A program made the translations under genes and the position numbers. From a virus (taxonomy: Duplodnaviria > Heunggongvirae > Uroviricota > Caudoviricetes): a DNA stretch of 20,587 nucleotides. The notes beneath the pieces were generated by a model. The model was given only the letters and a program-made list of their open reading frames with translations, was not told the origin of the DNA and made no database searches. Below, piece after piece: positions 607 through 18,434 of this stretch. The stretch's first letter is position 1, and each line of letters starts with the position of its first letter. Where the stretch lies: positions 1 to 20,587 of IMG/VR virus record IMGVR_UViG_3300029862_000030. One strand, given 5' to 3'.

Positions 607-3600
607 TCAGCATTCCTCCGTCACGTCGCATGGACAGCATCACCGCCTGCACCCGCTGGTCAATCAGCTGCACAAGACTGCCTGCCGCCTCCGGCCCTAT
701 CTGTCCGTTAGCCCCGTCATTCTGAATGGCGATGTGGTAGACCGGGGAATACACCAGACCGGCGCTGCCGTTCATACTGCCCACCGCGCGTACGCCCAGC
801 GAGCCATCCGCCGCCCGGGTCAGGGGCATAATGGCTTCAGGTCCGGCTTCCCCCATCAGCCCGGCCCCTTTTGCAAACGCAAAGTACGTGGGCGTGTCCA
901 CAATGCTGTTGCTGTACGCACTCAGATTTGCCGATGTGTAAACACCACCTTTTGCGTTTGCCACTGCCCCCGAAATCCATCCGCCGACCGTACCAAGCCA
1001 CCCTCCGGCACCGGAGAGTGATTTCAGTCCGTTAACAATGGCTGCATTCATCAGAATTTTTGAAACTTCCCGGAGAACTGAACTCCCCCAGTTCCTCCAG
1101 TCCACAACATTCCCGGCCAGTGCATCGGAAATATTTGATACCAGCCCGTCCATCGTGGAAACGACAGCATCTGCCGCCTGCGAAGCATAATCGGTGGCAC
1201 TGTCTGCCCAGTTCGTCAGCCCCTCTTTGAGCCCGGCATTCCAGTTACTGCGTAAAGCATCAGCCTTTGCATAATAATCCTGCTGATCGCTGAGACGCTC
1301 TTCCAGATATTTTTTATTCAGCTCTTTCTCCTGTTTCCACAGGGCTTCTTCAATTTCTCCGGCCTGATACTGTCTCAGTAGCTCGTTATTTTTCTGCTCA
1401 AACTCCTGCCGGATGCTCCACATTTCCTGAAGTCGTTCACGCATCCGTGAGCCTTCACCATATCCCAGTAACTGAGCCTCATTTGATGCTCTGACACTGG
1501 CATTACTGTCCGCCAGACTGCTCTCATACGCAGCAAGCTGCTCACGAATCTTTTTCTGGTCGATAAGTGCTGCATTCTGCAAAAGCGTTTTTTTCTGCGC
1601 TTCTGACAGGGTTGATAATTCGCCCTGACTGACCTGATATTTCATCTTAGCCAGTTCAGTATTCTGCCCTGCCAGTGCTATCTGTTCTTTTTGCTGTTTA
1701 ATCAGCCGTTTATAAATATCCTCTGTTTTTTCCGCTTCGGTCTTTTTATGCGCTTTGGGTTTATTTGCCTGGTTATTTCGCCATGCATCCAGTGAGTTAT
1801 TTATATAATTCAGTCTTGCTGTCTGATACGCCTCTCCCACAAAGCCGAGATCATCCGCAGCATAACCCAGGCGGGCACGCTCACGAGCTTCCCCCTTCAG
1901 GCGGGACAGAGCCAGTTCGCGCTCGCTGTTATTCAGTGCGGTCTGCTGTTTATCATCCAGGGTTGCCTGTGGTAGCCGTAACGGTACATTCACCAGCCCC
2001 TGTCGCTGCTGAAGTAATTCATTACCGAGCCCGAGAAGGCGATTAAACTCGGTATGCTGCCCATTCATGATCAACAGGGACTGATACGCTTTGTTTTGTT
2101 CCGCTGCCTGTTGACGGATCAACGCCACCCGTCGCTCCTCCAGCCCGGCAAGCACATCCTGAATGGATTGCGCTTTGCCCTGCATTTGAGTGAGGCGAGA
2201 CTGTTCAACTGCCAGTTGATTTGTTGCTTCTGCAAGCCCTTCTGTGACAGTTTTTACCGACGTCATGTGGTTAATCATAAAACCGTTATCGGTTGTCCAG
2301 CCCGGGTTTGCCAGCACATACTGATAGCCAGCAATTTTTTCCTGTAAGGATTTAATCTTACTTTTCTGCTCGTCAATTAACCTGTTTTGCTCCTTCAGTG
2401 CCTGTCGCGTCTTTTCCTCATTATCTGACGCTTCAGGAAGCGACATTGCCGACGTTTTCTGGCGAATTTCGTCGATTGTTGCGGCATACTGGCGTGCAGA
2501 TTCTCTGGCCTGCTCCTGATTCTGATACATCGTGTACCAGGCCGCAGCCCCCAGCATGACGAGTCCCGGCACACCACCAACCAGCCCCAGCGCGCCACTT
2601 AATAAACGACTCCCCACTGACGTAACATTATTCAGCGTTGTCTGTGCCGCTGTTCTGGCCGCAATATTACGGGTAAGTGACACCTGGGCAGCTGTCAGCT
2701 TCGCTTCTGCTGCGGCCTGCCTTTCGGTACCGCGAGCAGCAACAACCGCCTGTTGCGCACGATAAACCGCCGCACGCGCCCTGGCGGTTGCTATCTGTGT
2801 CCCCCGAAGTTGCACTTCAGCAAGAGCCACTTCGTTTCTGGCTGCAGTAATTAATCCGGCAGTTGCAGATCCAGCAGACGACGCCATATTGCCAAAATAT
2901 CGGGCTACCCCGACGGCAACCAGAGCACCGGCAGCGGTTGCCACGGTGTCAATATTGCCTGCAATACCATTCAGCACACCGGAGAGCGTCTTCGTCACTC
3001 CGCTTGCCTCGTTCGCACCACCAACCCAGGCCATAAAGGCGTTTTCAACTTTGGTTGCAGAGGATGAAACCGTATCAGGCATTGCCGCATATTCATCACG
3101 TAATGCCCCAAGCTGACTAATCAGTGCAGGAACAACCTTATCGGCGGTCAACTTTCCGTTATCCGCCATGGCCTTCAGATCCTTACGGGCAACTCCCATT
3201 CCCGCAGCCAGAGCACGAATAACACGATCGCCGTTCTCATTCACCGAGTTAAACTCTTCACCGCGCAGCACTCCCTGCGCCAGAGCCTGACTGAACTGCG
3301 TGATCACCGAACTGGCTTCTGCTGTACTGGCACCGGATAATTTCAGGCCCGTGGAGATCGCCTCGGTGACTTTCAGTACCTCCTCAGAACTGTAACCATA
3401 CTCCCGCATGGAAGCTGCAGAGCGGGCAAAAAGGCTGGCGTTATCAGAAAAAGCCGTCCCCGTTCTCTGGCTGATCGCCATTAATTCACGCTGTGATGAC
3501 TGAAAATCATCACTGGACTGTGAGGCCTGCTTCAGACGGGCATTTACTGAATTCCACTCATCGGCGAGAGAAATAAGATGACCGGTAGCAAAAGCCCCGG

Positions 3601-6776: not shown

Positions 6777-6809
6777 CAGAAACTCCTGCCCGCAACACTG
6801 TGCGGGCAT

Positions 6810-6830
6810 AAAAAAACCGCGTCGGCGCGG
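6810..6830 (-). terminator. Candidate intrinsic terminator directly after the major capsid gene
   Basis: Minus-strand reading gives CCGCG-CCGA-CGCGG followed by T7, 20 nt after the capsid stop codon. Confidence 0.6.
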
Positions 6831-6852
6831 TCTGTAACTGAACAACGAGTGG

Positions 6853-8070
6853 TTATTTGCCAGTGAGCGCCTTGATGGCTGCCACATCTTCCAGCACACA
6901 GTCAAAACGATGGAAAGCCAGAAATGCCACCTGATCAAACTCAGCATAACGCTCAACCAGACGTTTCAGTTCCATATAAGTAACGCGGCGAATGATAAAG
7001 CGGTTGAAATCCCCCAGGAAAATGAATTTTTTTCCGGTACCAATCCCGTCAATAGCCTGATCAATAACATAAGGGATCCCCAGCACAGTAGCCGGCGTAC
7101 CGCCTGCAATATCCGGCAGCCATAACGGGCGTTTCTGTCCATCCTCCATCTCTTCAATAGTCTGCAATGTGGCATCATTGAATGCCCAGCGGTATTTCGG
7201 CCCACCACGATATGCCGGATCAATGGCATGTTTCAGGGCATTCATTTCTTTCCAGGTGAAAGCGGCAGAGGCTGCAGTCTGGATGGTTCCCGTCACCGAC
7301 GCTGCCAGCCCTTTTGGCTGTAACGGTGATCCCGTTCCGGTCCCCTGAACCAGATATTTTGCCTCTCCACGACCAATACGCTGGGCAATACGGTTTGCCA
7401 GATAAGATTCAATATCCACCCCACTGTCCTGGAGCAGCTCATTGGACACACGAATTATTTTTGATGACAGCTTTTTAGCCCCCAGAATAGCGGTCCCGAA
7501 CGTCACATCCTGTTCCGTTGCGGCTGTATTTTCCGCCAGCAGTTCGCCCTCTTCAGTCGTGCCATCAGACGTTGACCAGGTGATATCCTGCCCGGTTGAT
7601 GTGGTCAGAAGTTGCGCCACACTGGCAATCCCGCCATAAGCCTTCATGGTGTCAATGATTTTGTTACGCATCTGCGTGGGCACCGTATATCCGCCCTGAG
7701 AATCCGTTGTTACACTCTGAGCCCGCAGTTCACGCATCAGATTACGCTCTTCAGCATTCAGTTCTGCAAATCCGGCACGCAGAAAACGGTTAAATGCCGC
7801 AGCGCGCTTCTCTTCCACCGCCTTTTTCCCGTTCTCCGCCTCATTATTCTGGCGCTCTTCCGGCCCGGACTCATCCACATATGCCTGATCCTGACGGCGC
7901 AACTCTTCTTCACGGGCGATTTGCTCATCCAGCGCATCCAGCTCAGCTTTCGCCCTGTTCCACTCTGCCCGTTGCTCATCAGTCCATGCGTTATCACCAA
8001 TTTTTTCATGCAGTGCACGCATATCCTTTGCAATGGTGTTTCGTTTTTGCTTCATCTCATGAAGTTTCAT
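6853..8070 (-). CDS. Major capsid protein, HK97 fold, with an N-terminal delta (scaffolding) domain
   Basis: 405-aa ORF. The N-terminal ~100 aa are charged and coiled-coil-like (delta domain), followed by a capsid-like body. It follows the prohead protease, as in HK97. Confidence 0.9.
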   Translation of the reverse strand: MKLHEMKQKRNTIAKDMRALHEKIGDNAWTDEQRAEWNRAKAELDALDEQIAREEELRRQDQAYVDESGPEERQNNEAENGKKAVEEKRAAAFNRFLRAGFAELNAEERNLMRELRAQSVTTDSQGGYTVPTQMRNKIIDTMKAYGGIASVAQLLTTSTGQDITWSTSDGTTEEGELLAENTAATEQDVTFGTAILGAKKLSSKIIRVSNELLQDSGVDIESYLANRIAQRIGRGEAKYLVQGTGTGSPLQPKGLAASVTGTIQTAASAAFTWKEMNALKHAIDPAYRGGPKYRWAFNDATLQTIEEMEDGQKRPLWLPDIAGGTPATVLGIPYVIDQAIDGIGTGKKFIFLGDFNRFIIRRVTYMELKRLVERYAEFDQVAFLAFHRFDCVLEDVAAIKALTGK

Positions 8071-14608: not shown

Positions 14609-14953
14609 TCAGCCCAGCGGTGGAGTCTTCAGAGAACCAGTAATTCTTCCCGGTAGCTTTCCTTTGTAGGTTATCCACACATTCTGCGCCTCTAAAATTA
14701 CGGGGCGCTTTTCCGGCGACTGCTCACCCCCTTCACATAACCCGGCAGCAACATCCAGGAAGACCTGTCTGATGCTCCTTCTGGCTGCTGCCTCATAAAA
14801 CTCCAGCGCGGCACCTTCAACACGGTCCAGCGAGATGTCCAGGTCAAAAATTTCACCGTCAAAGCGTTTTTTGTCCCGTAACGCTAAAGTTACCGTAACT
14901 TTATTCTCAAAATTGCGGATCCCTTTCACAATCAGTTCATAGTTTTGAGTCAT
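14609..14953 (-). CDS. YdfR-like (DUF1327-type) conserved protein of unknown function between holin and endolysin
   Basis: 114-aa ORF. Its position between holin and lysozyme is the same as ydfR in the E. coli Qin prophage. The family assignment is from memory. Confidence 0.65.
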   Translation of the reverse strand: MTQNYELIVKGIRNFENKVTVTLALRDKKRFDGEIFDLDISLDRVEGAALEFYEAAARRSIRQVFLDVAAGLCEGGEQSPEKRPVILEAQNVWITYKGKLPGRITGSLKTPPLG

Positions 14954-14957
14954 TGAA

Positions 14958-15173
14958 TTACTCTCCCCGTGCAGCCTTACGCTTGTCTTCTCTGATTTTG
15001 AAGTACAGATTTGTCAGATAAGTCAGGAAGCCCAGAACCAGACTCCCCAGTACACCAATCGCAGCCCACTGTGACGGACTGACCTGATCAAGCCACTGTA
15101 AAAACCAGTAGCCAGCACTGCCTGCGGAGGTGCCGTAGGCAATGCCCGTTGAAATTTTGTCCATGGATTTCAT
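14958..15173 (-). CDS. Class II pinholin (phage 21 S-type) with a dual-start motif
   Basis: The 71-aa product [71 protein letters not shown] matches the phage 21 S holin as recalled. The track ORF 14958..15272 was trimmed to the ATG at 15173, which has a GGAGG Shine-Dalgarno sequence. M1 and M4 give the antiholin/holin dual start. Confidence 0.9.
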
Positions 15174-15310
15174 AGCCTCACCTCCGCAGCGAACGGATGG
15201 CGTAGTTATAAGGGGAGCGAAAAAGAAAGAATGCGCGATTGCGCAATATGGTAACGTCAGGGTATTATCCACTGGCTGAATAGATCACTTCACGTTTTTT
15301 GTTCCTTGCC

Positions 15311-15338
15311 GCCCGTATCCATATGCGGGCTTTTTTTT
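15311..15338 (+). terminator. Candidate plus-strand intrinsic terminator
   Basis: Plus-strand hairpin GCCCGTAT..ATATGCGGGC (imperfect) followed by T8. Confidence 0.45.
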
Positions 15339-15344
15339 GCATGT

Positions 15345-15374
15345 AAAAAGGCCCCAACACATGTGCGTGGGGCC
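15345..15374 (-). terminator. Candidate minus-strand intrinsic terminator upstream of the holin (possible tR'-like element)
   Basis: Minus-strand reading gives a GGCCCCA/TGGGGCC stem around an 11-nt loop containing the palindrome CACATGTG, followed by TTTTTAC. Confidence 0.45.
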
Positions 15375-15574
15375 TGAGAGTATACATGGTTTCAGTCAAC
15401 TGCATGGTGCCGGGTGCCTCCCGGTGAATTCAGTACCAGCACCTGAATCCGCGATTATCCCATATACCTACTCGCTGATTGCCCATCCGCACAGGGGGAT
15501 TCACCATGCCAGTTTCTTTTAACAAACTCCCCGCAAAACAGACAACTGTCAACCGTCTGAATTGTGAGACATTT

Positions 15575-15603
15575 AAAAAAAAGGCCCGCAAAAGCGAGCC
15601 GGG
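15575..15603 (-). terminator. Intrinsic terminator downstream of the tRNA cluster
   Basis: Minus-strand reading gives CCCGGCTCGC-TTTT-GCGGGCC (7-bp stem with one G-T pair) followed by T8, about 12 nt after the 3' end of tRNA-Arg(TCT). Confidence 0.6.
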
Positions 15604-15614
15604 AAAAATAAGTC

Positions 15615-15691
15615 TGGCGCGTTGTACTGGATTCGAACCAGTGACCGATTGCTTAGAAGGCAATTGCTCTGTCCGGTTGAGCTAACAACGC
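15615..15691 (-). tRNA. tRNA-Arg (anticodon TCT, reads AGA), argO-like
   Basis: Hand-folded from the reverse complement: acceptor stem GCGTTGT/ACAACGC, D arm GCTC..GAGC, anticodon stem ATTGC/GCAAT with loop CTTCTAA, T arm CTGGTTCGAATCCAG, discriminator G and an encoded CCA. Similar to E. coli argU. Confidence 0.8.
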
Positions 15692-15704
15692 AGGGTACAG
15701 ATAA

Positions 15705-15781
15705 TGGACCGCCATCGAGGACTCGAACCCCGCGCAACCAGCTTCGAAGGCTGGTGCTCTATCCTGATGAGCTAATGGCGG
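15705..15781 (-). tRNA. tRNA-Arg (anticodon TCG as read by hand, reads CGA), argN-like
   Basis: Hand-folded: acceptor stem CCGCCAT/ATGGCGG (C1-G72), D stem GCTC/GAGC, anticodon stem CCAGC/GCTGG with loop CTTCGAA, T arm CGGGGTTCGAGTCCTCG and an encoded CCA. The anticodon call depends on my loop assignment. Confidence 0.65.
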
Positions 15782-15788
15782 TATGTGA

Positions 15789-15864
15789 TGGTGGCCCTTG
15801 CTGGATTTGAACCAGCGACCTGGCGATTATGAGTCGCTCGCTCTCACCACTGAGCTAAAGGGCC
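15789..15864 (-). tRNA. tRNA-Ile2 (anticodon CAT, lysidine type, reads AUA), ileZ/ileX-like
   Basis: Hand-folded 76-nt sequence GGCCCTTTAGCTCAGTGGTGAGAGCGAGCGACTCATAATCGCCAGGTCGCTGGTTCAAATCCAGCAAGGGCCACCA, which closely resembles E. coli tRNA-Ile2 (ileX) as recalled. Anticodon loop CTCATAA. Confidence 0.8.
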
Positions 15865-15904
15865 GGGAGCCGCATAATAACGACGCGTAATTAATTCTTC
15901 AATA

Positions 15905-16243
15905 TCATCCGTTCTGGCTGACTAAATCCTGTACTTCCCGAACCGTCTGCTCAAAACGTTCAGTCTCCAGCTCAACGCCAATTGCACGACGCCCGAGCGC
16001 CAGTGCCGCTTTCACTGTCGAACCCGACCCCATGAAAAAATCTGCAATCAGGTCACCCGGACGACTGCTAGCGCTGATTATCTGCTGCAGCATTTCTGCC
16101 GGTTTTTCGCACGGATGTTTCCCGGGATAGAACTGCACCGGTTTATGCGTCCAGACATCGGTATACGGCACCTGCGCCGTCACGCCAAAATACCGCCGCA
16201 GTCGGCATTCACAACCACCAGCGCATTTAACGTTCAGGCACAA
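15905..16243 (-). pseudogene. 5'-truncated DNA N6-adenine/N4-cytosine methyltransferase remnant (C-terminal part only)
   Basis: The 112-aa ORF contains HPCEKP (the HPTQKP-type motif) and DFFMGSGST (the FxGxG AdoMet-binding motif) near its C-terminus. These are the C-terminal half of beta-class amino-methyltransferases. No DPPY motif or N-terminal half is present; the reading frame runs into the AT-rich region upstream of the porin. Confidence 0.6.
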
Positions 16244-16693
16244 AAAAACCCGCTCATCGGCGGGTTTAAGCTGTGTGACGAAGTAACTACTCTTAACAGC
16301 ATAACCAATTTTTTACGTACGTAAACTACTAAATGATATTTGTGAGAATGCCACCGAGTGTTCAAAACACCACCACAAATACATAAGAAAATTTCAACAA
16401 ATAACCAATTAATAATTTCAGATGTTATTTTTAGTTTGTTTAAATTAAGCTAAAGAATTATAGACTGCTTATAAATAAGTTCCATTAATATAAATTAGCT
16501 AATAGATTTATTTTTGTTCAAACAAGAGCCATAAATAGGATTAGATAGAAAAGGTTCAGATAAAAATAGAGATCTACTTCACAAATTAAATGAGAAACTA
16601 AAACTTACATCTTGAAATAATCACATTGATTAGATGAATATTTATCGCGCAGTGACATCATTTTTTAATAATAGTTCAAAAAAAGGGTGTACA

Positions 16694-17776
16694 ATGAAAA
16701 AATTAACAGTGGCAATTTCTGCTGTAGCTGCATCAGTACTGATGGCGATGTCTGCTCAGGCAGCTGAAATTTATAATAAAGACAGTAACAAGCTGGATCT
16801 ATACGGGAAAGTTAATGCCAAGCACTACTTCTCCTCTAATGATGCAGATGATGGTGATACTACTTATGCCCGTCTTGGCTTCAAAGGTGAAACCCAAATC
16901 AACGATCAACTGACTGGTTTCGGTCAGTGGGAATATGAATTCAAAGGCAACCGCGCTGAATCTCAAGGTTCTTCCAAAGACAAAACCCGTCTTGCATTTG
17001 CAGGCCTGAAATTTGGTGATTACGGCTCAATCGATTACGGCCGTAACTACGGTGTAGCATACGACATCGGTGCGTGGACTGACGTTCTGCCAGAATTCGG
17101 TGGTGATACCTGGACCCAAACAGATGTGTTCATGACTGGTCGCACTACTGGTGTTGCAACTTATCGTAACAACGACTTCTTTGGTCTGGTCGATGGCCTG
17201 AACTTTGCTGCTCAGTATCAGGGTAAAAATGACCGCACTGACGTAACTGAAGCCAATGGTGATGGTTTCGGTTTCTCCACTACTTATGAGTATGAAGGAT
17301 TCGGCGTGGGTGCAACCTATGCTAAATCAGATCGCACTGACGGTCAGGTCGCCTATGGTAAGAGCAAATTCAATGCCTCCGGCAAAAATGCGGAAGTATG
17401 GGCTGCAGGCCTGAAATATGATGCGAACAATATCTATCTGGCTACCACATATTCTGAAACTCAGAATATGACCGTTTTTGGTAATAACCATATTGCAAAC
17501 AAAGCACAAAACTTTGAAGCAGTAGCACAATATCAGTTTGACTTCGGTCTGCGCCCATCTGTTGCTTACCTTCAGTCAAAAGGTAAAGACCTTGGTGTTC
17601 ATGGTGACCGAGACTTAGTCAAGTATGTCGATGTCGGTGCTACTTACTACTTTAATAAAAACATGTCCACTTTTGTTGATTACAAAATCAACTTAATTGA
17701 CGATAGTAAGTTTACCAAAACAGCTGATATTGATACCGACGACATCGTCGCTGTAGGTCTGGTTTACCAGTTCTAA
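16694..17776 (+). CDS. nmpC: Outer membrane general porin, NmpC/OmpC/OmpD family
   Basis: The track ORF 16634..17776 contains the signal peptide [23 protein letters not shown] followed by [16 protein letters not shown] and a C-terminal ...VGLVYQF beta-barrel signature, matching NmpC as recalled. The start was trimmed to the MKKL Met; my nucleotide count in that line disagrees with the track frame by 1 nt, so the start is good to about 1 nt. It is on the opposite strand to the phage late genes and preceded by about 370 nt of very AT-rich DNA. Confidence 0.9.
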
Positions 17777-17779
17777 TCT

Positions 17780-17950
17780 GATTACGAAAAAGATATGTTG
17801 CGGGAGGCGTTGCCTCCCCAACATATAAGTGGCTCCCTCAAGCCACTTCCTTTAGAAGCACAACCTTGCTTCTAACTATATAAACCTTCTGTTATATATT
17901 ACCCTTTATTTTTGGGGGCGTCTCAACGCCCCATTTTTAATAATTTTTAG
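17780..17950 (+). ncRNA. Candidate structured 3' region / small RNA downstream of the porin (IpeX-like position)
   Basis: Three successive plus-strand hairpins (GGGAGGC-GTT-GCCTCCC, AAGTGGCT-CCCTCA-AGCCACTT, GAAGC..GCTTC) followed by an intrinsic terminator (GGGGCG-TCTCAA-CGCCCC then ATTTTTAATAATTTTT). In E. coli K-12 DLP12 the IpeX sRNA is reported downstream of nmpC; I cannot verify identity from sequence alone. Confidence 0.35.
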
Positions 17951-17965
17951 TAAACAATTGGCATA

Positions 17966-18349
17966 TTAATTAGAGTTATTAACAACGATATCCATCTCTA
18001 ACTGGATATCTAATGCCATTAACATCCCTTCAATTATGCCCTCAGCCTTCTGTAACCTTTTCCCGATATAACCATCAGAGCAGCAATGCTTACCTGCCAG
18101 TGACATGAATGTCATACCGACTACATAATAATCTACTAATAAATCGTGCAAATCGCTGTTGTTCTTTTTCAGACGGGCCATGCACCCGCAAATGATCATA
18201 GCGTCATCGTCACAACATTGCGGGCGAGATTTTACTTTTGAAGTAATTAATCCCTTAAAACCGGCGGCAATGGACGACCAGGTCACATCTTCATGATTAT
18301 TAGCCGCCCACGCTCCCCAACGCTCAAGAACCATCTGAATATCACGCAT
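17966..18349 (-). CDS. Late-gene antiterminator Q (DLP12 QuuD-like)
   Basis: The 127-aa product from the ATG at 18349 ([22 protein letters not shown]...) matches my recollection of E. coli QuuD. The track ORF starts 5 codons earlier at an alternative TTG. It lies downstream of rusA and ylcG, as in DLP12. Confidence 0.8.
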
Positions 18350-18434
18350 CAACTTACTCCACAAAAATCAGACCAGAACGCCAATTACAAGCAAAAATCA
18401 ACAAAACAGTATTAGTTGATTGTTATCTCTGACT

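Follow-up and report, generated by a model that had tools for sequence, protein, structure and literature searches.

Lambdoid prophages of EHEC Sakai carry "convergent sRNA genes" at a moron site 3′ of PR′ (Tree et al. 2014, PMC4104026). Each convergent pair combines one sRNA in the late direction with one short antisense RNA, the latter exemplified by AsxR (54 nt), AgvB (60 nt), and EcOnc03 (51-56 nt), whose primary 5′ ends were mapped by 5′ RLM-RACE and which are destabilized without Hfq (PMC4104026). AsxR and AgvB are anti-sRNAs, directed against FnrS and GcvB, respectively (PMC4104026). The same study lists in its Table S2 an Hfq-CRAC peak, EcOnc08, in prophage Sp4 (Sakai 1179938-1180010, minus strand), together with its homologues EcOnc21 and EcOnc42, and a Northern band of ~271 nt was reported for the EcOnc08 group in EHEC (PMC4104026).

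A further member comes from EPEC E2348/69, where Hfq RIL-seq by Pearl Mizrahi et al. (2021) recovered the sRNA E2348C_1409.E2348C_1408.IGR from prophage PP6 and described it as a "homologue of EcOnc08/21/42" (PMC8550237). This RNA maps to NC_011601 1444797-1444978 (minus strand, Table S6), its size was estimated at 182 nt from RNA-seq, and it formed chimeras with the 5′ UTRs of cfa (767) and dppA (197) and with pcm (118), perA (30), tir (29), and espC (26), with emrA likewise among its RIL-seq partners (PMC8550237). Its target motif, GGCAAGG, is present in targets that include cfa, dppA, and tir (PMC8550237). EcOnc08, EcOnc21, and EcOnc42 have been listed without an assigned function (PMC7873438).

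Here, we analyzed a 20,587-nucleotide stretch of viral DNA (the window) in which a promoter-like hexamer pair and a hairpin with a T-run had been flagged on the plus strand, upstream of a holin gene and opposite to it. The flagged promoter and terminator very likely constitute a real sRNA gene of ~64 nt. By comparison with the systems above, it is probably a gene of a lambdoid prophage that forms the EcOnc08-type antisense half of a convergent pair and acts in trans via Hfq.

RESULTS

Genomic setting of the locus

The window belongs to a lambdoid E. coli prophage. Around the plus-strand unit, an 801-base segment has 100% matches in many E. coli chromosomes and in PhiR49_2, a phage isolated from ECOR13. 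The features surrounding the unit are as follows.

18364-17969, minus strand: antiterminator Q, first in order in the late operon
16634-17773, plus strand: porin gene, 380 aa, general porin (Pfam Porin_1, E 1e-150)
16243-15908, minus strand: truncated DNA methylase
15864-15615, minus strand: three tRNAs (ARAGORN)
15339..15538, minus strand: STnc100 sRNA (RF02076), full length over model positions 1-206 (Rfam 133.1 bits against a gathering score of 47)
15376-15350, minus strand: STnc100 terminator, with U5 at 15349-15345, tail-to-tail with the plus-strand unit
15185-15178, minus strand: Shine-Dalgarno sequence of the holin gene, with the start codon at 15173-15171
14958..15173, minus strand: phage 21-type holin S, 71 aa, dual start M1/M4 (Pfam PF04971, E 1.4e-35; annotation of the identical locus)

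Downstream of the holin gene, the minus strand continues with DUF1327/YdfR, lysozyme, Rz, HNH, and terminase genes. The plus-strand unit lies 3′ of Q, antisense to the late operon and tail-to-tail with STnc100, and 65 bp separate its -35 hexamer from the start of the holin gene, the first of the lysis genes. Pairing of STnc100 with an antisense unit was also found in Sakai Sp4, Sp5, Sp9, and Sp10, in EPEC PP6, in Stx1 and Stx2 phages, and in the clade C loci described below.

Several other observations concern this region. Identical RefSeq loci leave STnc100 unannotated and show a pseudo "hypothetical protein" on the other strand. The tRNA cluster comprises a tRNA with anticodon CAT (Met according to ARAGORN; Ile, ileZ-type, in RefSeq), Arg-TCG, and Arg-TCT, and is followed by a minus-strand terminator at 15600-15583; this ileZ-argN-argO set is the set found upstream of stx genes in Stx phages. 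The porin gene stands between Q and the tRNAs, opposed to the late operon and with a terminator at 17915-17932 (plus strand), an arrangement that recalls nmpC in DLP12; the late transcript would need to pass antisense through it. A mosaic breakpoint falls at ~16243-18364, where KA0011 and PhiR49_2, whose loci match the window exactly around the plus-strand unit, carry a 126-aa Q directly upstream of the methylase fragment and the window instead carries the porin gene and a different, 132-aa Q (PF06530). Finally, a strong minus-strand terminator at 16267-16246 lies within 16240-16362, a segment with sub-threshold Rfam matches to Trp_leader (26 bits) and isrK (15 bits). On the minus strand, this segment may be a short terminated leader RNA of the PR′/tR′ (StxS/6S-like) type, left from another Q module.

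Promoter, terminator, and predicted transcript

The elements of the unit, all on the plus strand, are as follows.

15220..15232, plus strand: A-rich tract AAAAAGAAAGAAT, just 5′ of the -35 hexamer (sequence and alignment A1)
15239..15244, plus strand: -35 hexamer TTGCGC (read from the sequence)
15245-15262, plus strand: 18-nt spacer between the hexamers (read from the sequence)
15263..15268, plus strand: -10 hexamer TATTAT (read from the sequence)
15274..15338, plus strand: predicted sRNA of 64-65 nt, EcOnc08/EcOnc42 / EPEC IGR-sRNA group (covariance model match; 5′ end by analogy)
15304..15310, plus strand: seed CCUUGCC, directly 5′ of the terminator stem (alignment and RIL-seq motif)
15311-15330, plus strand: stem-loop of the intrinsic terminator, followed by U8 at 15331-15338, an Hfq-type 3′ end (terminator scan)

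The original prediction had named the two hexamers, their 18-nt spacing, and the hairpin with T8, and each of these elements is present at the positions listed here. A terminator scan, independent of that prediction, returned the stem GCCCGTAT/ATGCGGGC at 15311-15330, with 8 pairs (5 of them G-C) and a loop of 4, beginning 42 nt from the -10 hexamer. As the hairpin lacks a U-tract on the other strand, it is a plus-strand terminator; a minus-strand terminator was ruled out at this hairpin by the absence of a U-tract 3′ on that strand. The plus-strand terminator is back-to-back with the minus-strand terminator of STnc100, with ~6 nt between them.

The Rfam matches of AsxR and AgvB begin 6 nt past the -10 hexamer. 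Because the AsxR and AgvB RNAs start at that distance, the window RNA would, by analogy, have its 5′ end at about G15274/15275 and a length of 64-65 nt. A start 6-7 nt past the -10 hexamer thus comes close to the transcript of ~60 nt estimated at the outset. The A-rich tract is possibly an UP-like element, a function that we infer from sequence; relatives carry AAAAAGG at the equivalent position in alignment A1. All eight sequences of that alignment keep TTGCGC with a GC-rich palindrome, the 18-nt spacing, TA[TA][TA]AT, and GCCCG...CGGGC followed by a T-run.

The promoter matches the consensus at 8/12 positions, with just 3/6 in the -35 hexamer, and for this reason, the promoter scan made no call here. 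The window contains 46 sites of equal quality, and resampled sequence yields 58 +/- 9. By itself, the hexamer pair thus does not exceed chance level, and the case for the promoter must therefore come from comparison with relatives. Between the window and the Stx-phage relatives (clade A, below), the hexamers are identical at 12/12 positions and the spacer at just 8-10/18. The -35 hexamer TTGCGC is identical in the EcOnc08-type, AsxR, AgvB, and EcOnc03 loci and reads TTGCAA in clade C. The -10 hexamer TATTAT is identical (6/6) in clades A and C, and reads TAAAAT in AsxR, AgvB, and EcOnc03, again at 18-nt spacing. Conservation of the promoter therefore covers three diverged clades plus AsxR, AgvB, and EcOnc03. 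The prediction had staked itself on the promoter being conserved in related prophages, and there the hexamers and the 18-nt spacing are indeed kept while the spacer drifts.

The -35 hexamer sits in a perfect palindrome, ATTGCGCAAT (15238-15247). Its minus-strand form (15232-15247), a 5-bp hairpin with TTCTTTCTTT 3′ of it, was classed as terminator-like by the scan. On the strand opposing the sRNA, relatives preserve a comparable hairpin, GCGC-N4-GCGC and then T5. The hairpin over the -35 hexamer could be a second pause site or terminator in the late direction, a regulator site, or simply the reverse of an UP-like A-tract.

Relatives and distribution

A blastn comparison with phage genomes found the 110 bases at 15233-15342 at ~73-75% identity in Stx1- and Stx2-converting phages. 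These relatives are tail-to-tail with STnc100, and on their promoter side lies a nanS-p-like esterase gene, not a holin gene. A pattern scan of viral contigs, followed by de-duplication, resolved three clades. Clade A comprises Stx phages, Sakai Sp4, and EPEC PP6; homology of the window to this clade starts at 15233, and the extension corresponding to the EcOnc21 region is missing from the window. Clade B is the window type and the sole clade that adjoins a holin gene (97 genomes). Clade C consists of two loci (L029 and L045) with the -35 hexamer TTGCAA, ~390 nt from a phage 21-type holin gene. At ~75% identity, the three clades have in common the -35 hexamer (TTGCAA in clade C), TATTAT at exactly 18 nt from it, the block CTTCACGTTT, CCTTGCC, and the terminator, while their spacers and 5′ thirds have diverged.

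Relatives were found in 768/5426 complete E. coli genomes. The window variant (at least 99% identity) is present in 97 complete genomes (~2%), and the whole tRNA-STnc100-sRNA-holin arrangement likewise occurs in 97. A diverged form at 60-80% identity is carried by ~87% of the genomes with a relative, clade A-like sequences making up 673/770 matching records, and every inspected example of this form adjoins a nanS-p-like esterase gene and lies >2 kb from a holin gene. The unit is unannotated in the matching E. coli genomes and appears only as a "hypothetical protein" in phage PhiR49_2. Scanning one genome per species for CTTCACGTTT-N-CCTTGCCGCC gave 108 stretches; because none of those checked is followed by a T-run, these matches look like chance, and the scan provided no evidence for the EcOnc08 group outside E. 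coli and its phages.

Assignment to the EcOnc08 group

We built a covariance model (R1) from 11 distinct clade A and clade C sequences, leaving out window-type sequences. R1 matches the window at 15275-15337 (plus strand) over model positions 1-69, with 54.4 bits and an E value of 2.4e-11. The next-best match in the window scores 16.8 bits (E ~0.015) at 6808-6864 (minus strand), a GC hairpin and U-tract after a structural gene; it is most likely an ordinary terminator. AsxR, AgvB, and EcOnc03 match R1 at the terminator level only. In the reverse comparison, Rfam gave nothing above noise on the plus-strand unit, either at the gathering threshold or at E <= 10, with AsxR, AgvB, and Esr41 all absent; a model of the EcOnc08 group is itself absent from Rfam. 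The Rfam AsxR and AgvB models scored 57-97 bits on Sakai Sp5, Sp10, and Sp9, and the region used for them in the window was 14900-16400, at E <= 10. Since R1 gives a full match and the AsxR/AgvB models miss the window, the window RNA belongs to the EcOnc08 group and not to AsxR/AgvB. The EcOnc08 CRAC peak corresponds to positions 2511-2439 of our Sakai Sp4 locus (L005) and covers the clade A unit from the base that follows TATTAT as far as the U-tract, and the sequence in Fig. S5 of the EPEC study (PMC8550237) is likewise the clade A unit.

The convergent slot is nonetheless shared across these groups. With Rfam, the late-direction partner in Sp4, Sp5, Sp9, and Sp10 is STnc100, and AsxR and AgvB occupy the antisense slot of Sp5 and Sp10; the AgvB model matches the same slot of Sp9, home of EcOnc03. 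This raises the alternative that the window RNA is an anti-sRNA sponge like AsxR and AgvB, titrating a core-genome sRNA rather than regulating mRNAs directly. The dppA and cfa 5′ UTRs are targeted by core sRNAs (GcvB; RydC/CpxQ). That the top EPEC partners are also core-sRNA targets would fit such a sponge, as would the promoter/terminator scaffold and genomic slot held in common with AsxR and AgvB and the similar size. We nevertheless regard a sponge as unlikely: the body and seed of the window RNA are unrelated to AsxR/AgvB, with 4-8/23 positions identical, the two Rfam models and R1 separate the groups as described above, and the partners listed for the EPEC homologue in RIL-seq are segments of mRNAs, with no sRNA among them.

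Other candidate identities were rejected. Esr41 (EcOnc14) is on SpLE1, and its Rfam match is absent here. PasA/PasC and the EPEC PP4 antisense RNA gave chance matches only by blastn at word size 7 and were ruled out as homologues. The PP4 RNA (locus L240 ~610-680, minus strand; NC_011601 1060613-1060672) is another antisense-oriented RNA, located in the PasD1/holin intergenic slot, annotated inside CDS E2348C_1013, and has very large RIL-seq totals, with entC, nlpD, and dnaK as partners. As it is unrelated to the window unit in sequence, the same slot hosts several sRNA payloads.

The predicted length of 64-69 nt is shorter than the only sizes reported for the EcOnc08 group (~271 and 182 nt), which counts against a short EcOnc08-type transcript from the window. 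In Sakai Sp4 (L005 2665-2630, minus strand), a second promoter-like site, ATGCCA-N17-GATAAT, overlaps the esterase start codon and has an equivalent in the EPEC PP6 locus (L004). This upstream site is the better promoter-like match and would give an RNA of ~190 nt to the same terminator; its sequence is absent from the window. It may explain the 182-nt (EPEC) and longer (EHEC) isoforms of EcOnc08/21, and in the EHEC and EPEC phages, it may be the main promoter, with the short form a processed product. Should the short promoter be inactive, the copy in the window could be no more than a dead remnant.

Seed, fold, and candidate targets

The heptamer CCTTGCC is invariant in 16/16 distinct family sequences, abuts the stem at 15311, and occurs once in the window. 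As RNA, CCUUGCC is complementary to GGCAAGG, the RIL-seq motif of the EPEC homologue's partners. A search of the window for GGCAAGG-type target sites in the phage's own genes found none besides the antisense of the sRNA gene. The predicted RNA fold (-18.5 kcal/mol, z = -4.3) consists of a weak A/U-rich 5′ hairpin, the seed, and the terminator. Across eight diverged relatives, 92% of terminator stem cells are paired, compared with 19-48% in slid controls. Two stem pairs are changed on both sides and 5/8 never vary, so the covariation support is modest.

RNAduplex energies for pairing between the sRNA body and the cfa and dppA 5′ UTRs of EPEC were no better than those of shuffled controls, because the method permits huge loops. 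A 9-bp seed match, UCCUUGCCG / CGGCAAGGG, is present in the cfa leader and is open to the window and EPEC versions alike.

Relation to the lysis genes

The original prediction was of a short RNA antisense to the holin leader that might act as a brake on leaky lysis-gene expression. Its plus-strand RNA gene has gained support, as the promoter is conserved and homologues are Hfq-bound in EHEC (PMC4104026) and EPEC (PMC8550237). The antisense position also stood, with the window RNA antisense to the late-transcript leader 101-165 nt 5′ of the holin AUG, but the RNA does not reach the ribosome-binding site: 15274-15338 has no overlap with the holin Shine-Dalgarno sequence (15185-15178) or AUG (15173). 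The brake itself fared worse, since the RNA falls ~100 nt short of these signals, the linkage to holin is specific to one clade, the features that are conserved are of the trans-acting type, and GGCAAGG occurs in the window solely as the antisense of the sRNA gene. A second plus-strand promoter-like site of at least 8/12 was sought in the holin gene and its leader (~14930 to 15239), and none was found; a long antisense RNA running over the holin ribosome-binding site from a promoter inside the holin gene thus found no support.

In a cis-antisense brake, the RNA or its transcription against the late operon would lower read-through or stability of the transcript that enters holin, lysozyme, and Rz. 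Lysogens would then be protected from accidental lysis, or the timing of lysis would be adjusted, an effect to which we assign a low probability. Perfect complementarity exists between the RNA and the part of the Q-antiterminated late transcript that separates the STnc100 terminator from holin, every family member faces late transcription, and the minus-strand hairpin with its T-rich tail overlaps the -35 hexamer. Moreover, with just 65 bp between the sRNA promoter of the window variant and the start of holin, any transcription past the STnc100 terminator would enter the lysis genes directly. Polymerase modified by Q reads through terminators, as is established for lambda, and would swamp a weakly expressed antisense RNA. 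Adjacency to holin is also not conserved: the inspected clade A examples adjoin an esterase gene, 673/770 records are clade A-like, and the clade C units are ~390 nt away. Conservation peaks at the seed and terminator, with nothing that is holin-specific, and in RIL-seq, the EPEC homologue is joined to host mRNAs (cfa, dppA, pcm, tir) rather than to lysis genes. With the ~100-nt gap between the RNA and the holin signals, these points make a dedicated cis brake improbable.

With no esterase module in the window clade, the convergent sRNA pair comes to lie right at the holin leader. It is conceivable, though we think it doubtful, that the plus-strand unit has here gained a cis role besides its trans role, insulating the lysis genes as a "lysis safety catch". 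Such insulation would work through head-on transcription and pairing with transcripts that escape the STnc100 terminator, along with the minus-strand hairpin over the -35 hexamer, and the read-through it would act on, at similarly long odds, is that of constitutively made tRNA/STnc100 transcripts. We allow this secondary insulating role a small chance because all members of the superfamily face the late operon.

Least probable of all is that no functional RNA is made, the hairpin and T8 being either half of an insulator built from back-to-back terminators or a remnant in decay, and the hexamers being kept, on this very unlikely account, by descent or by overlap with a palindrome or hairpin used on the other strand. 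The chance-level promoter match fits this, as do the palindrome ATTGCGCAAT around the -35 hexamer with its terminator-like minus-strand hairpin and the nearly clonal window variant (at least 99% identical in 97 genomes), which for that reason carries little evolutionary information on its own; against it, three clades at ~75% identity keep the hexamers, spacing, seed, and terminator while the spacer and 5′ part drift, homologous units are Hfq-bound in two pathotypes, and homologous promoters have mapped start sites.

DISCUSSION

We favor a trans-acting reading of the plus-strand unit, and a dedicated lysis brake is unsupported. The unit has the anatomy, conservation, and position of its homologues; that the window copy is expressed and acts as they do, we infer from that likeness. 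Lambdoid prophages of E. coli carry such convergent pairs in a moron region located between Q/PR′ and the lysis genes. We expect TTGCGC-N18-TATTAT to be used in the lysogen by the sigma-70 polymerase of the host, with initiation near G15274/15275 and termination at the hairpin and U8. The product would be an RNA of 64-65 nt that binds Hfq through its U-tail and terminator. Its unpaired CCUUGCC, adjacent to the terminator, would be free to pair in trans with host mRNAs that contain GGCAAGG-type sites, the best target candidates being the cfa and dppA 5′ UTRs, as for the EPEC homologue.

The type of sRNA represented by EcOnc08/42 and the EPEC PP6 sRNA is already known; what is new here is a ~75%-identical variant in a new genomic context, with no new mechanism. 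On the trans-acting reading, EcOnc08-type Hfq-dependent prophage sRNAs extend beyond the Stx-type phages of EHEC and EPEC to a clade of phage 21-type/HK97-like prophages that is present in ~2% of complete E. coli genomes, many of which come from human isolates. Relatives in EHEC and EPEC contact cfa, dppA, and virulence mRNAs. The assignment is useful for annotation, the gene being unannotated so far, and for understanding prophage sRNA cassettes as modular units. The lysis-brake idea would be of interest only if shown experimentally.

Comparison with known systems

Lambda OOP (against cII) and P22 sar (against ant) are the classical phage cis-antisense RNAs. Like the predicted window RNA, these are short, terminator-ended, opposite a phage operon, and made in the lysogen or the early phase. 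They overlap the coding region or ribosome-binding site of their targets, and this overlap is conserved, whereas the window RNA has no such overlap and its neighboring gene varies among relatives. PasA and PasC of EPEC are likewise antisense-oriented, directly upstream of the holin/lysozyme operon of lambdoid prophages, and trans-acting through Hfq. Their sequences are unrelated to the window unit, however, and they lie between esterase and holin rather than tail-to-tail with STnc100/PasD.

The closest relatives are EcOnc08/EcOnc21 (Sp4), EcOnc42 (Stx1 prophage Sp15), and the EPEC IGR sRNA, which are homologous across the whole predicted window RNA at ~73-75% DNA identity. EcOnc08/42 and the EPEC sRNA have the same -35 and -10 hexamers, spacing, seed CCUUGCC, terminator type, position, and orientation as the window unit. 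The window copy nevertheless forms a clade distinct from EcOnc08/42, differing in the 5′ third, the top of the terminator stem, and the spacer, and compared with EcOnc08/21, it is without the upstream part covered by EcOnc21 and the 182-271-nt isoforms. The promoter-side neighbor differs as well, being a phage 21-type holin gene in the window and a nanS-p-like esterase gene in the EcOnc08 group.

AsxR (RF02703), AgvB (RF02702), and EcOnc03 share the slot, promoter scaffold, and terminator base with the window unit, at 51-60 nt compared with ~64 nt for the predicted window RNA. They differ in the part that makes contact: AsxR and AgvB use a variable 5′ end to sponge FnrS and GcvB, whereas the EcOnc08 group has a terminator-adjacent seed, with mRNAs as the partners seen. 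Together, the EcOnc08 group and AsxR/AgvB present one promoter/terminator cassette with an exchangeable body, a compact example of payload swapping among prophages.
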